Of a DNA stretch of 64,000 bases, positions 27,201-33,200 are shown one piece after another. The stretch's first letter is position 1; each line of letters begins with the position of its first letter. Source of the stretch: Girardia tigrina (lineage: Eukaryota); contig MQRK01236447.1 in assembly GCA_001938485.1 (NCBI GenBank), positions 7,738 through 71,737 of the forward strand, given 5' to 3'. The notes under the pieces were generated by a model. That model was not told the DNA's origin. It did no database searches and saw only the letters and a list, made by a program, of their open reading frames with translations. The translations under genes and the position numbers were made by a program.

Positions 27201-30200
27201 TAGTGCTTATTAATGATAAGACACTGAAACCCATTATGCAATCAACATAGACAAAGTAAAGCTGTTTCAAATCATAAAATATTTTGCCATTTTTCTCAAA
27301 TAATAAGCTGATGGTGGATTCTCTTCTCTTGCATATGTTAATTTAAGTGACTTAACAAGAATAAATCATTCGAGAAGTAACACAAAACCTTTATTGTATC
27401 GATGGCATTCATGGTTTGGTCAGCAGTGTGTACTGCTGTTTGTGTGTTCATTTAGAATATAGAGGTATTATTTCATAGGTTTCCGTTGTATGATTCTTAC
27501 ATCATCAATCAGTGGACATTAGTATCCCGTGTCGATGATTACTAGACGAAGTCAAGCTTAATAACCCATTTGACGTTTCGAAACACTCTAAACATAAAAA
27601 TCATTTGATTAAATAGAGTCAAATTGAATATTTTATGTGACTTTACCTTTGAAGCACATATTCACTTGACTCACGCTTAATGTGGAAGGTAACGACTAAG
27701 TAAGGTCTTATCTTCCGTTAATAATAAGGTTCGAAAATTACACACAAAATCATAAGAAAACCTTAACCTTCTTGAATATACTTTTCCAACATTTCAGCTG
27801 TCAGGAAAAGTAAAACGATTCAACTGCACAATTTTATGACTTCAATATCCTCCAGAAAATTCTGGGGAGTAAGTTCATAATTCATTTCCCTTCCTTCACC
27901 ATTTTCTTTGAATCTTCTGATTTCTCTTTGGTTCTTTCTTGATGTTGTCTACTTTCTTCTTCATCAAACACACCGCTTCTGTTAGAAGAAGACTATCTAA
28001 TTCAATTGTTGAAAGCTTTTCATTTCCATAAGTTTCTTACGGGAGACACCCGACCTAATTATTCTTTGCCTTCTTGAAAAGCAAAACATGATTAATGCTC
28101 CTAAGTTCACATTTTATATTTTTTTCTCCACATGAAAAATAATTTGAATAGTTTGACTTTAAATAGTGTACTTATAGTGTTCAATCGCTTAATTATATTT
28201 TAGGGTCAAAGTATGGAGTTGTCAGGAATGTTTATGTTTTTAAGAACATTTAAACAAGTCTCGTTTAAATCTGTATTGCAATTACATTTAGAGTCATTAA
28301 GACTCTCAGAAGGTCTTTCATCGTTTACCATCGTTCTAATTGGTTTTCTTATTTCTGTTTTTAATCATGATTATTCGAACAACTTTTCTAAGTTATTTTT
28401 TAAAATATTTAACCACTAAAAATATTAAATAAAAAATAATAATTTTTACAATTTCTCAATAAATCCCAAAATAATAAAAATGTCATCAAATTATTAAAAA
28501 TGCATTTAATTTAAATTTTACTAAAAATTATTAAACTTAATTTTAATTCTGAAATTTAAGATATGAACTTATAAAATGATTATTTTAATTATGTTCGAAT
28601 AGTCAATCACTTTAAACTTAATAAAAAAAACCAATTTCCATCTGGGTGGGAGAATCACCATTCTAAATTCCATACATTTCTAATCCATACATTTACACAT
28701 TCAAACAATTCAAAATATTCCTCACAATCATAAAAATTAAATCATTTTTTTAGAAAAAATGAAACTTCAATCAATAATCAATTGACCATTTTTGTCGATT
28801 TTACTTTGCCATTCAGTTCACTTTAAATTCCTCTTTGGTAGAAAATTTGGTTTTTATCAGTGAAAAATTCGTCCAAGTATATTTTCACGTTATTATCTAA
28901 AGTCAAAGTTTTCCCCGACTATAAGTAGCGTTTACGCCTCTTTCATTATCATTAGAATCAGGATTCATAACTTAACACCACAATTTTATTAATGACAATA
29001 ATTCACACATTTAAACAAATTTCCTGTTAATTCATTTATTTCGCTAAGATTTAATCTTTTACATTTTTCTTCCAATTCAATTTTTAAAACTAATAAATTT
29101 TAAAACTTTAAATTAATAAAATAATTTTAAATTAAAACTCAAAATTTTTATAAAAATTTTATTTAAAATCATATCATAACTTTTATTAAAATATATCAAT
29201 TGTTATGACTAAAAATATTTTTATTTTTAAATAAGTAATTATTTTTTATGATTTTCTTTATTATATCATTTTTAATTTTAAACTTTTTTTCACTTTTTTT
29301 AAAACTATCAAATTAAGAATTAATAAACTTGAAAATTAATTTTAATTTTAATAAACTTGAAAAATATTTTGGCGAAATGCAAATTTAAATGAACCCCTCA
29401 TATGGAACAAAACTGGTAAAAATCCGGTGAGATCGATTCAGCCATATATGAGGGATATAGTAACACTCTTCTCAATTTAATTCAAATATTTTTTTGTGAT
29501 CCGAATTGTTGATATTAATAAGAAACAAAATAAAACCGATTTTGAGGATCGGATTTTTTAACGTCATTATGTATCATCACTTTACATTTTTGCAGTAAAT
29601 TGAACTTAAAATTTTATTTAATTAAGATTTTTATATCTTTCTGAAATAATTCAACAAAATATTTTCTCTTTTGCAACGATGAAAGTTTTATTTCTTCATT
29701 GAATCCTTCAATTTATTATAGTTATCGTTTTAAAAATGTTTTACATATGTTTTACCATCAATTGGTGGTGATGCGAGAGCGAGCGCAGCATTGTGGCCGC
29801 GGCGGGTAGGCGCTAGGGGGTGGATTGCGAGACGCGGGGGGTTTAAATATTGAAGCTCACTGGTGCGTTCATCGGGCACGCCATTGAGGACGTCGGGTTT
29901 TTCTTCGATGTGCATCATTTTGACTCTCGGATCAATTTTAGGTGGAAGGGGAATATAAATTTGATATTTGTTGCGGTCGACTCCCACTCTCATTCTCGCA
30001 TTGAGCCCCAATGAAAACACTCCGGTGATATCTTCGCCGATGTTGACCGTCAGAGAATCGTTGACCCCGTCATTGAGAAAGAACACCGTCTGCTTCCAGT
30101 GAGTGCCTCGTCTGTCACTCGGCCCGGTGGACAATCCAATACGCTCATGTGACGACGTGNNNNNNNNNNNNNNNNNNNNNNNNNNNNNNNNNNNNNNNNN

Positions 30201-33200
30201 NNNNNNNNNNNNNNNNNNNNNNNNNNNNNNNNNNNNNNNNNNNNNNNNNNNNNNNNNNNNNNNNNNNNNNNNNNNNNNNNNNNNNNNNNNNNNNNNNNNN
30301 NNNNNNNNNNNNNNNNNNNNNNNNNNNNNNNNNNNNNNNNNNNNNNNNNNNNNNNNNNNNNNNNNNNNNNNNNNNNNNNNNNNNNNNNNNNNNNNNNNNN
30401 NNNNNNNNNNNNNNNNNNNNNNNNNNNNNNNNNNNNNNNNNNNNNNNNNNNNNNNNNNNNNNNNNNNNNNNNNNNNNNNNNNNNNNNNNNNNNNNNNNNN
30501 NNNNNNNNNNNNNNNNNNNNNNNNNNNNNNNNNNNNNNNNNNNNNNNNNNNNNNNNNNNNNNNNNNNNNNNNNNNNNNNNNNNNNNNNNNNNNNNNNNNN
30601 NNNNNNNNNNNNNNNNNNNNNNNNNNNNNNNNNNNNNNNNNNNNNNNNNNNNNNNNNNNNNNNNNNNNNNNNNNNNNNNNNNNNNNNNNNNNNNNNNNNN
30701 NNNNNNNNNNNNNNNNNNNNNNNNNNNNNNNNNNNNNNNNNNNNNNNNNNNNNNNNNNNNNNNNNNNNNNNNNNNNNNNNNNNNNNNNNNNNNNNNNNNN
30801 NNNNNNNNNNNNNNNNNNNNNNNNNNNNNNNNNNNNNNNNNNNNNNNNNGCACTTCGTCTTTCAACATTTCCTCGTGAATGCCGAAATGAGCATAGGAAT
30901 CAAAATAATAGTCTCTCGATGTCATTTCCGATGCATCGATCGCATCAACGTTTAGCGAACCATGTTCCCATGATCGCTTGAAAAATCGGACGAATAAAAT
31001 TATTATTTTCTTTTAAGAAACAAAAAAAATGTCCGCAATATTCTTTTATTCCAGAAACTCACAAGAAACGTACACAAATTTTTTTCGCGCCAATTTATTA
31101 TTTAATCAATTAGTTGTTTAAAACAAAAAACGCTAATTCGAATTATAAATAAATTTCGAACCTTCAACAAACCTCTCTCAGCCAATCAGATTGCCAGAAT
31201 TTTTGTTGTGATAATTTGACTCGATTAGTCATTCCAATTTTTTTNNNNNNNNNNNNNNNNNNNNNNNNNNNNNNNNNNNNNNNNNNNNNNNNNNNNNNNN
31301 NNNNNNNNNNNNNNNNNNNNNNNNNNNNNNNNNNNNNNNNNNNNNNNNNNNNNNNNNNNNNNNNNNNNNNNNNNNNNNNNNNNNNNNNNNNNNNNNNNNN
31401 NNNNNNNNNNNNNNNNNNNNNNNNNNNNNNTTTATAAAGTGAATAAACAAAGAAAAGATATGAAGAAAAGCGAATATAATCTTAAAGTCGATCTTCCAAT
31501 CCGTGGATAAACGATCTGAAAAGGTAAATGACAAATATTCTCTTGGAAATATCATCGATTGAGGAATATTTCCATAATAATCTCAGATAATCTTCGAATA
31601 GACCTTTTGAGACAATAATCATCTTGATTTTGAAACTCCTCTCTGCGAACACTGCATTCTTCACCTCGCTCTCCATCACCACTTCGATCGCACTATCATA
31701 ACTTTGATGAACATTTGCGATTCTTGTAAGATTGNNNNNNNNNNNNNNNNNNNNNNNNNNNNNNNNNNNNNNNNNNNNNNNNNNNNNNNNNNNNNNNNNN
31801 NNNNNNNNNNNNNNNNNNNNNNNNNNNNNNNNNATGAAAATATTTTTACACTCACAACCATTTGCAACATCTGAATCAAAATGCTCAAAACAAATTCTGC
31901 TCGCATTTATGTAATCCTTGCCGCATCGCAGCTTCACGCGATTATGTTCTCTCTCTCTCAATCGAGCCTCATTTTTACAATCAAACAATTGGTAATAAAT
32001 ATTGCATTTTGAGTTTGTCACTTAATAAAGTACTTGTTCCGCACCCATTTCACATAGCTTCAGACATGATGTTATATTTAGTGGGAGGAATGCTAAAGAG
32101 ACTGTGTTGAGGTTGATGATTTTTAGATATGCTTGGCAATTATCAACGATGACCAAGACTAACTTGTGAACCCAGTCTTCAAAAAACTTGTATAACACTT
32201 AAAGTATTTTGACATTTATTAAAACATCTAGAACGCTCGTATTTCCTAATCGCCAACAACGGTAACTTTTCAGTGCCATACATGTTTGTACACACTATTA
32301 ACAGTAATACACTCTTTACTTTACTTATTACCATGACATGGTTTTCCCTAAAAAGTCAAAATCTTGTATGGAAGTAAACGGAAGAAAAAACACATTTCAT
32401 CAGTGTTGAATACATCGCAGGGTGCAAAAGGAGAAAGAAGAGCTGGTAGGTGAGTCCAGGTTGTGACAATATTTTCAATAACTGCTGCTGCTTCTCCACA
32501 AATATCACGAAACATAATATTATGGCAAGTTTTGAATTTGTTCAACCAGCCACCACTACACTGAAATGTTTTGTGCTTGAACAATTTTGCAAAATCATGT
32601 GCTTTCTCACGAATTGTAGGACCATTGATTAAAATGTTTTGGAGTGAGCTATGGTAAGCCATTTGAGTAAGGCCTCCTCAACATCATCAAACATAACAAT
32701 GCGCATTCTTTCGCTATCATTGTTGTGGTTTGACTCATAGGCATGGCGTAGTCTGTCACGATCTTTCCAAATTGAATTAACCGTTTGCACATTTGGAGCA
32801 CTTTAGACTTGCTGAAACAGCTGTTTGTTTTTTCCCGACTCAATTTCACGAATAATCTGCTTTTTTGCCTCTAAAGTAAAAGAAATTTGCTTGTGATTAT
32901 CATTCATTGTATGAATACCAACAAGAAGAAAATGAGAGCAAACAAATTTGTAATGCTGAAATTGATTAATTTAATTAAAGTAAATTTAAAAATTTAAATT
33001 ACGTTCTTTTTAACTGTACAAATAAATATTTAAAACAAAAGTAAAATTGATGTAATAAAGAATTTCTAATTTTAAAAAATCTAATTAAGAAAAAGATAAA
33101 TATTGGTAAATTCGATAAAGGAATGGGTTATAGAGACAGAAAGATTAAAAAATTATAATTTTACATCATATGAAAATACATACATACAACATCCACACAT

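Follow-up and report, generated by a model that had tools for sequence, protein, structure and literature searches.

A chimeric open reading frame (ORF) that joins pieces of two unrelated housekeeping genes, PRMT1 and the proteasome ATPase gene Rpt1 (PSMC2), lies in a 64,000-nucleotide stretch of the Girardia tigrina genome (assembly GCA_001938485.1, contig MQRK01236447.1, positions 7,738 to 71,737 of the forward strand; this whole stretch is referred to below as the window). We consider it probable that the ORF is cargo carried by a solo long terminal repeat (LTR) of a BEL/Pao retrotransposon, in a family whose LTRs hold pieces of spliced host mRNAs in frame with ubiquitin-Gag-Pol, so that the cargo likely gives the start codon and deubiquitinases would free Gag. 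The LTR can be identified by its ends and by the elements that share them, its cargo has lost the introns of the host genes, and one element carries the same cargo in both of its LTRs. The cargo frame continues past the LTR end, and the di-glycine that closes the ubiquitin is conserved.

The chimeric frame runs through the end of a BEL/Pao LTR

A single minus-strand frame is open between 30158 and its stop codon at 29730; it comprises the C-terminal part of PRMT1, a piece of Rpt1 and a 52-aa tail. It runs antisense within PHKB, between the two exons listed in Table 1. A first-pass annotation of this DNA had named both source genes, which Pfam (PRMT_C and PRS7_OB) and PDB (PRMT1/8 and PSMC2) bear out, and had placed the chimera antisense in PHKB, to which the flanking plus-strand exons indeed belong. 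It had also drawn one in-frame ORF starting at 30981. This stands for 30158-29730 but not for the remainder, where the frame of the first ATG of the cassette (30971) is closed by a stop after 8 codons and where, if the 690 letters of an N run are counted literally, the PRMT1 N-terminal and C-terminal frames on its two sides are different ORFs; behind this gap the frame is open for 142 codons. The gap had been thought to be about the size of the missing PRMT1 coding sequence. However, the spliced host distance across it is 667 rather than 690, and several sibling LTR copies are missing 399 nt at this position. Likewise, the segment is more GC-rich than a PHKB exon, as had been remarked (54% in the PRMT1 piece vs 34%), but the coding sequence of host PRMT1 is itself already at 44%.

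The tail, which had been called unknown and unrelated, is made up of the last 123 bp of an LTR (41 codons) and 11 codons of the flanking intron. At the other end of the LTR, a terminus starting with TG at 31987 is preceded by the same five bases that come after the LTR part of the tail, and target-site duplications of 5 bp are typical of Pao elements. Searching the genome with the DNA of the feature and with the 123-bp tail alone gave 743 and 681 candidates, respectively (40 were scored in each case), and the Rpt1 peptide gave 79 matches among 115 candidates. The copies all end at one base, with a terminal CCA, and among the 83 distinct copies in the fetched loci, 17 of the 21 solo candidates with both ends visible have a 5-bp target duplication of their own.

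In other copies an 18-nt primer-binding site (PBS) comes right after the LTR end (21 exact matches). The PBS behind this same end is followed by ubiquitin, a DUF1759 Gag, a CCCH finger, a reverse transcriptase (RVT_1), Peptidase_A17 and an integrase zinc finger (Integrase_H2C2), and the domain order of Gag-Pol is of the protease-reverse transcriptase-ribonuclease H-integrase (PR-RT-RH-INT) type with Pao domains, the protease motif being read by eye. DUF1759 was present in all 40 of the nearest Gag relatives scanned (40 of the 150 best). One copy has two LTRs, of 1856 and 1870 bp, in which 1824 of 1852 aligned bases are identical (98.5%) and which hold the same cargo; it also has a PBS, a polypurine tract (PPT) before the 3' LTR and its own target duplication, and its coding region is interrupted by stops and frameshifts.

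Other kinds of mobile DNA were also weighed. The first-pass annotation had put forward capture by a Pack-type transposon, and a mosaic multi-gene cargo with one fixed end is what one might expect if a Pack-type DNA transposon or a Helitron had taken up genomic gene fragments. We regard this as extremely improbable, since the cargo has no introns, the copies have TG...CA ends with a 5-bp duplication and are linked to a PBS, a Pao-type gag-pol and a PPT, and the two-LTR copy contradicts it; in the window, moreover, neither Helitron ends nor terminal inverted repeats matching the tail were found. Chimeras of a long interspersed element (LINE) and mRNA, with a common 3' tail, would explain the fixed 3' end, the spliced cargo and the apparent raggedness of the 5' ends in short views, but they are hardly credible in view of a common 5' terminus that lies 0.9-4.1 kb upstream and adjoins the target duplication, the lack of poly(A), the PBS that comes after the tail in the 21 exact matches, the target duplications of the solo LTRs and, again, the two-LTR copy. 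Two further candidates were rejected: a tRNA-like or structured-RNA end (no Rfam family matched, and there is no tRNA in the window) and a giant multi-cassette element (homology ends at the common LTR start).

The Belpaoviridae profile of the International Committee on Taxonomy of Viruses (ICTV) describes elements of ~10 kb with the order LTR-PBS-gag-PR-RT-RH-INT-PPT-LTR, LTRs of 0.2-1.2 kb and a tRNA-Arg/Gly primer (PMC8742986). The family described here shares this order and size as well as the Pao-specific Pfam domains. It differs in having ubiquitin in front of Gag, LTR-borne host cargo, a PBS that is apparently not of the Arg/Gly type, and LTRs of 0.9-4.1 kb, a length that comes from the cargo and is beyond that of the profile, which gives a range and not an exclusion rule. 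Judged by the ICTV profile, the element belongs to BEL/Pao, though its LTRs are longer and its primer is apparently a different one. When the genome was searched for a tRNA gene matching the PBS, 18 matches were obtained, and none of the five that were fetched was a tRNA. Presumably the PBS resembles initiator tRNA-Met.

The window copy itself is an ordinary, decaying solo LTR that looks broken and dead; it was likely left in the PHKB intron by LTR-LTR recombination. A second solo LTR of the family (L060; 1,523 bp), which carries SMC cargo and has a separate 5-bp duplication, lies on the same contig, ~7 kb before window base 1.

Cargo copied from spliced host mRNAs

Both intron-bearing parental genes, which had been proposed as a check, were located. 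The coding region of host PRMT1 (C238512) is interrupted by four introns, and the introns of host Rpt1 (C174703) are short, one of them lying within the peptide that the first-pass annotation had quoted. In the LTR cargo these introns are absent and the exon joints are exact, and the match to the host begins ~25-40 bases upstream of the ATG. The cargo is derived from spliced mRNA. We observed microhomology at the PRMT1/Rpt1 joint as well as at the joint before the tail, and the earlier suggestion of template switching is upheld, with RNA as the template. The host parents are ~90% identical to the cargo. An intronless full-length Rpt1 paralogue (L041) was considered as the donor and rejected; the donor is the intron-bearing gene in C174703.

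PRMT1 and Rpt1 are not the only genes involved, as LTRs of the family carry pieces of at least 10 host genes. Other cargo recognised by Pfam includes ThiF, small GTPase, HR1, Vac14, cullin, SMC, NDUS4, 14-3-3, IBR, MAP65 and MMR_HSR1; gene names beyond the Pfam family, e.g. MOCS3-like for the ThiF piece, are our assumption.

The exact PRMT1/Rpt1 junction occurs in seven contigs; in the other six copies the PRMT1 piece is shorter and the front differs. In the window copy, the PRMT1 piece is identical to a sibling LTR at 157 of 161 positions vs 145 of 162 for the host gene, and the Rpt1 piece at 104 of 106 vs 96 of 105, while a short stretch at the joint is common to both LTR subfamilies. Since the pieces are nearer to sibling LTRs and the joint stretch is shared, the chimera arose between PRMT1-bearing and Rpt1-bearing LTRs, rather than between host genes.

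These copies also speak against a one-off new chimeric gene, as which the ORF had been presented. A functional host gene, combining the body of PRMT1 with a piece of Rpt1 and nested in PHKB, would make sense of the 142-codon frame behind the gap, of the promoter-like block in front and of contigs from RNA runs that cross the joints. At the PRMT1/Rpt1 joint, however, these contigs have fewer than 31 letters on one side; the same RNA runs include contigs in which the tail reads into the primer site, as well as spliced host PRMT1 and Rpt1. We consider such a gene very improbable, because its first ATG soon meets a stop and the frames disagree across the gap, its C-terminus would be chance intron sequence, the six other junction copies have another, shorter front, and the Rpt1 cargo is near neutral (see below). 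As for an assembly chimera or a contaminant, which had been named as grounds for refutation, the assembly is fragmented, the feature contains an N run, and a GC-rich piece stands in an AT-rich intron. Such an artefact can scarcely be entertained, however, given seven contigs with the exact junction, host parents at the identity mentioned above, a target duplication in the PHKB intron, and contigs of a public DNA run (possibly from the source sample) that bridge both joints.

Cargo frame and the ubiquitin-Gag joint

In PBS-linked copies the cargo frame passes through the LTR end and the PBS. In 53 of 65 copies no other frame stays open up to the LTR end for as long as the Gag frame, and most of the exceptions shift within the last 30 codons. 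Because copies are related, we scored distinct joins instead. There were 607 representative segments, 325 of them at least 55 aa long, and 300 were scanned in six frames with Pfam, leaving pieces behind N runs out of the join calls. All 11 Pfam-supported callable distinct joins were in sense and in the Gag frame. Using words of 5-10 bases common to nine host-type coding sequences, one would expect 40-61% of joins to be in frame, which gives a joint probability of 4.5e-5 to 4.3e-3 for 11 in-frame joins. Ten further PBS-linked LTRs were fetched after this reading had been formed, and in seven of the eight that were callable the longest cargo ORF was again in the Gag frame.

Changes within the cargo were analysed in 22 Rpt1 and 10 PRMT1 copies, with three "shared indels" past the end of the PRMT1 cargo dropped as alignment artefacts. 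The frame is kept by all four shared cargo deletions, and stops account for one of 128 shared codon changes vs 13 of 204 private ones (p=0.012). Shared changes in the Rpt1 cargo are near neutral, with a ratio of nonsynonymous to synonymous changes (pN/pS) of 0.75; the value for the PRMT1 cargo, 0.31, is confounded by changes that the host gene has undergone. These frame data fit selection for an open frame, not for the cargo protein. The 5' part of the LTR was unusable as a frame control, because Pfam gave nothing useful in 75 segments of it.

Directly before Gag, the ubiquitin ends in RLRGG in 26 of 30 distinct ubiquitin rows (it is lost in three and lies under N in one), and this end is kept by all six members of a group that are only 58-64% alike. 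An upstream partial ubiquitin repeat has a GG end in none of 23 cases. An intact ubiquitin C-terminus directly before Gag is what one would expect of a processing signal of the pestivirus type (see below); cleavage by host enzymes, which would free Gag, is predicted. Among relatives of the Gag N-terminus (40 of the 150 best were scanned), four have a ubiquitin domain before DUF1759 and two more start within a ubiquitin end; in these six distant Pao Gags, ubiquitin lies 125-134 residues before the Gag motif, and Gag identity is 27-35%. The six Gag-relative proteins that were looked up are JGI, ENA or MGnify records. Of the searches for named ubiquitin-Gag relatives, one was dominated by polyubiquitins and another came back empty. 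One protein, P0270, has an HSP90 piece, ubiquitin and a Pao Gag in one chain, and is possibly the same kind of leader capture in another organism.

The mechanism we propose is the following. Transcription would start at the promoter-like block ahead of the cargo. Reverse transcriptase, extending from the primer through the LTR end, would switch at short homologies onto a co-packaged mRNA, run to its 5' end and land again behind the LTR promoter, and later switches between element RNAs would stack pieces, in the window copy a PRMT1-bearing onto an Rpt1-bearing LTR. Translation would begin in the cargo, at a start codon supplied by the captured mRNA 5' end, and Gag would be released by host deubiquitinases that cut after ubiquitin. 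In-frame captures would spread because ribosomes would start in the cargo, and Gag would be indifferent to the content of the cargo because of the cut after ubiquitin. A broader proposal, for and against which we see about equal weight, is that of an old BEL/Pao clade with a swappable translation leader, in which host mRNA 5' ends are placed behind the element's own promoter and provide the start codons, and a fixed ubiquitin allows host enzymes to remove any leader from Gag. The by-product would be hundreds of promoter-bearing, in-frame chimeric retrogenes in the form of solo LTRs, i.e. built-in exon shuffling.

Several points weigh against a cargo that is translated into Gag and removed through ubiquitin. 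The transcription start, translation from the cargo and cleavage are predictions made from sequence. Ubiquitin is reached from the PBS in one open frame in only 10 of 22 PBS-linked copies, and only 17 of 25 copies have their first ATG after the promoter block in the frame of the cargo. An 18-codon out-of-frame ORF is common to four related Rpt1 copies and a 2-codon one is found in two PRMT1 copies, although copies with an out-of-frame first ATG may have moved in trans or been translated by re-initiation. In-frame methionines are present between the PBS and ubiquitin, so that the cargo ATG is not strictly required, and a TATA-like motif ~75 nt from the LTR end indicates that the start could lie behind the cargo. 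In the two-LTR copy, which is decayed, an IBR piece does not follow the Gag frame, no PRMT1-Rpt1 chimera was seen among the PBS-linked copies, and nine of 15 Gag relatives matched near the N-terminus are without a ubiquitin end.

One may therefore also consider that the cargo is a passenger, captured from RNA by the same BEL/Pao solo LTR, but either located in U3, ahead of the true start, or untranslated into Gag. In this scenario the frame bias would come from codon-phased microhomology and decay of early-stop RNAs, and ubiquitin would serve Gag in some other way. The TATA-like motif, the methionines after the PBS and the out-of-frame first ATG in a multi-copy subfamily could all be read like this, as could the in-frame fraction of words common to host coding sequences and the long sense ORFs that are found in the LTR 5' part too. 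We nevertheless think it unlikely that the cargo is a mere passenger, since the 11 joins and seven of the eight later-fetched copies are in the Gag frame, above the microhomology expectation, shared stops are depleted, and one PRMT1 subfamily starts at an internal in-frame host methionine directly behind the promoter block.

The sense ORFs just mentioned form a second, variable set in LTR 5' parts (window 31245-31987; L047, L056, L061 and L076); they are long and have no Pfam match, and we take those of L047 and L061 to be ZMYND10-like and DIP2-like, respectively. An ATG is often found directly after the LTR start. At L109:930-1358 an internal deletion has fused Gag in frame to the LTR end. 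At L062:1423-1746, Pfam matched a Mononegavirales RNA polymerase; the match lies 1.2-1.5 kb upstream of an LTR end that is linked to a PBS, no LTR start was found there, and the polymerase may be flank or cargo.

Related systems and neighbouring sequences

LTR-mediated retroposition is known in animals, where retrocopies replace internal ORFs between two LTRs, and a Pao element, BATUMI, has made a two-gene chimera (Tan et al. 2016, PMC5131818). Those retrocopies resemble the present cargo in that they are partial copies of spliced mRNA with microhomology at the switch points, multi-gene chimeras and repeated copying. In contrast, the cargo here is within each LTR and duplicated with it, gag-pol is kept, and there are solo LTRs with a promoter-like block and cargo in the Gag frame. 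The family is a variation on LTR-mediated gene capture, with the cargo in the LTR, the element genes kept and the capture in frame.

As for ubiquitin, cytopathic pestiviruses carry captured host ubiquitin in their polyprotein, and the cut made by cellular ubiquitin hydrolases sets the N-terminus of the next protein (PMC8310069). In both cases host ubiquitin stands within a polyprotein ahead of the next protein, but in pestiviruses this is a sporadic RNA-virus recombinant, whereas here it is fixed in a retrotransposon clade behind a variable leader, with cleavage that is predicted. Foreign sequence has also been imported into LTR elements by template switching in BARE-2 and Veju (PMC13317346), although in BARE-2 the source of the sequence brought into the LTR was another retrotransposon and not host mRNAs. 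The Burro elements of planarians (PMC6431247) are LTR elements with host-like domains as well, but they are Gypsy-type, with fixed domains in an internal polyprotein. A term search of the main text of a BEL/Pao survey (PMC3118150) did not find the word "ubiquitin", although its supplements may bear on this point. In the open literature (i.e. without Repbase, GyDB and subscription journals), we found no report of ubiquitin-Gag Pao elements or of mRNA cargo inside Pao LTRs.

Known LTR capture destroys the genes of the element and yields mostly dead retrocopies, whereas here the element retains its genes and capture seems to be built in. If ubiquitin cleavage permits this, a retrotransposon would be putting host proteolysis to a new use, which would explain why chimeras that join unrelated housekeeping genes have open frames in this genome. 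A further prediction is cross-talk, through small RNAs, between the element and host genes that are essential. For annotation, a warning is in order, as many intronless PRMT1, Rpt1, SMC1 and cullin fragments in the genome are LTR cargo.

The coordinates of the window copy and its surroundings are given in Table 1. The promoter-like block contains motifs that we take to be CCAAT-, E2F- and YY1-like.

Table 1. Parts of the solo LTR and flanking features, in window coordinates
Feature	Position	Strand	Basis or remark
Solo LTR of BEL/Pao retrotransposon, 2,222 bp, TG...CA ends	29766..31987	-	Ends and target duplication; PBS-gag-pol-PPT elements have these ends too
5-bp target-site duplication, upstream copy	31988..31992	-	
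5-bp target-site duplication, downstream copy	29761..29765	-	
LTR 5' part (putatively U3-like), coding-like insert, two N runs, varies among copies	31245..31987	-	No Pfam match
Promoter-like block common to family LTRs (putative promoter)	31025..31190	-	
From host exon 1: PRMT1 5' untranslated region with N-terminal coding piece	30850..31009	-	94% to host
690-N run within cargo	30160..30849	.	
PRMT1 C-terminal piece, ends near end of host exon 4	29993..30159	-	Pfam, PDB, host comparison
PRMT1/Rpt1 switch zone: 5 common bases in 13-base stretch matched by both LTR subfamilies	29985..29997	-	
Rpt1 (PSMC2) piece spanning a removed host intron	29889..29997	-	
LTR 3' module (U5-like, 41 codons); in full elements reads via PBS into ubiquitin-Gag	29766..29888	-	
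Last 11 codons and stop of reported ORF: flanking intron, outside element	29730..29765	-	
PHKB exon upstream of insertion	22880..23005	+	
PHKB exon downstream of insertion; genome single copy	34110..34277	+	

A decayed pogo/Tigger-like transposase (window 32000-32950, with HTH_Tnp_Tc5 at 32351-32677) adjoins the 5' end of the window LTR, which may have inserted into this element. Elsewhere in the window (4978-7160, 24113-24421, 40526-41289, 43702-44412 and 54876-57836), translations point to further repeats of the PHKB region, presumably fragments of a Polinton-like polymerase and of a mariner-like transposase and a LINE endonuclease-RT relic. Another family LTR is surrounded by a pair of inverted repeats (81%; L002:24-125 and 2756-2856) with a palindrome inside, which is outside the LTR and is probably a separate DNA element hit by the LTR insertion. 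At L097:2807-6528, a family element contains, nested within it, LTR ends of a related kind and a further primer site. Proteasome ATPase paralogues that resemble Rpt1 and Rpt6 but have no family LTR end are also numerous (L041, L042, L079, L082, L083 and other loci); they are intronless, diverged and often open. For a diverged Rpt1 paralogue, the full-length matches are led by cestodes and trematodes, at ~80%. Finally, L081 has a GC content of 60% and may be foreign DNA.

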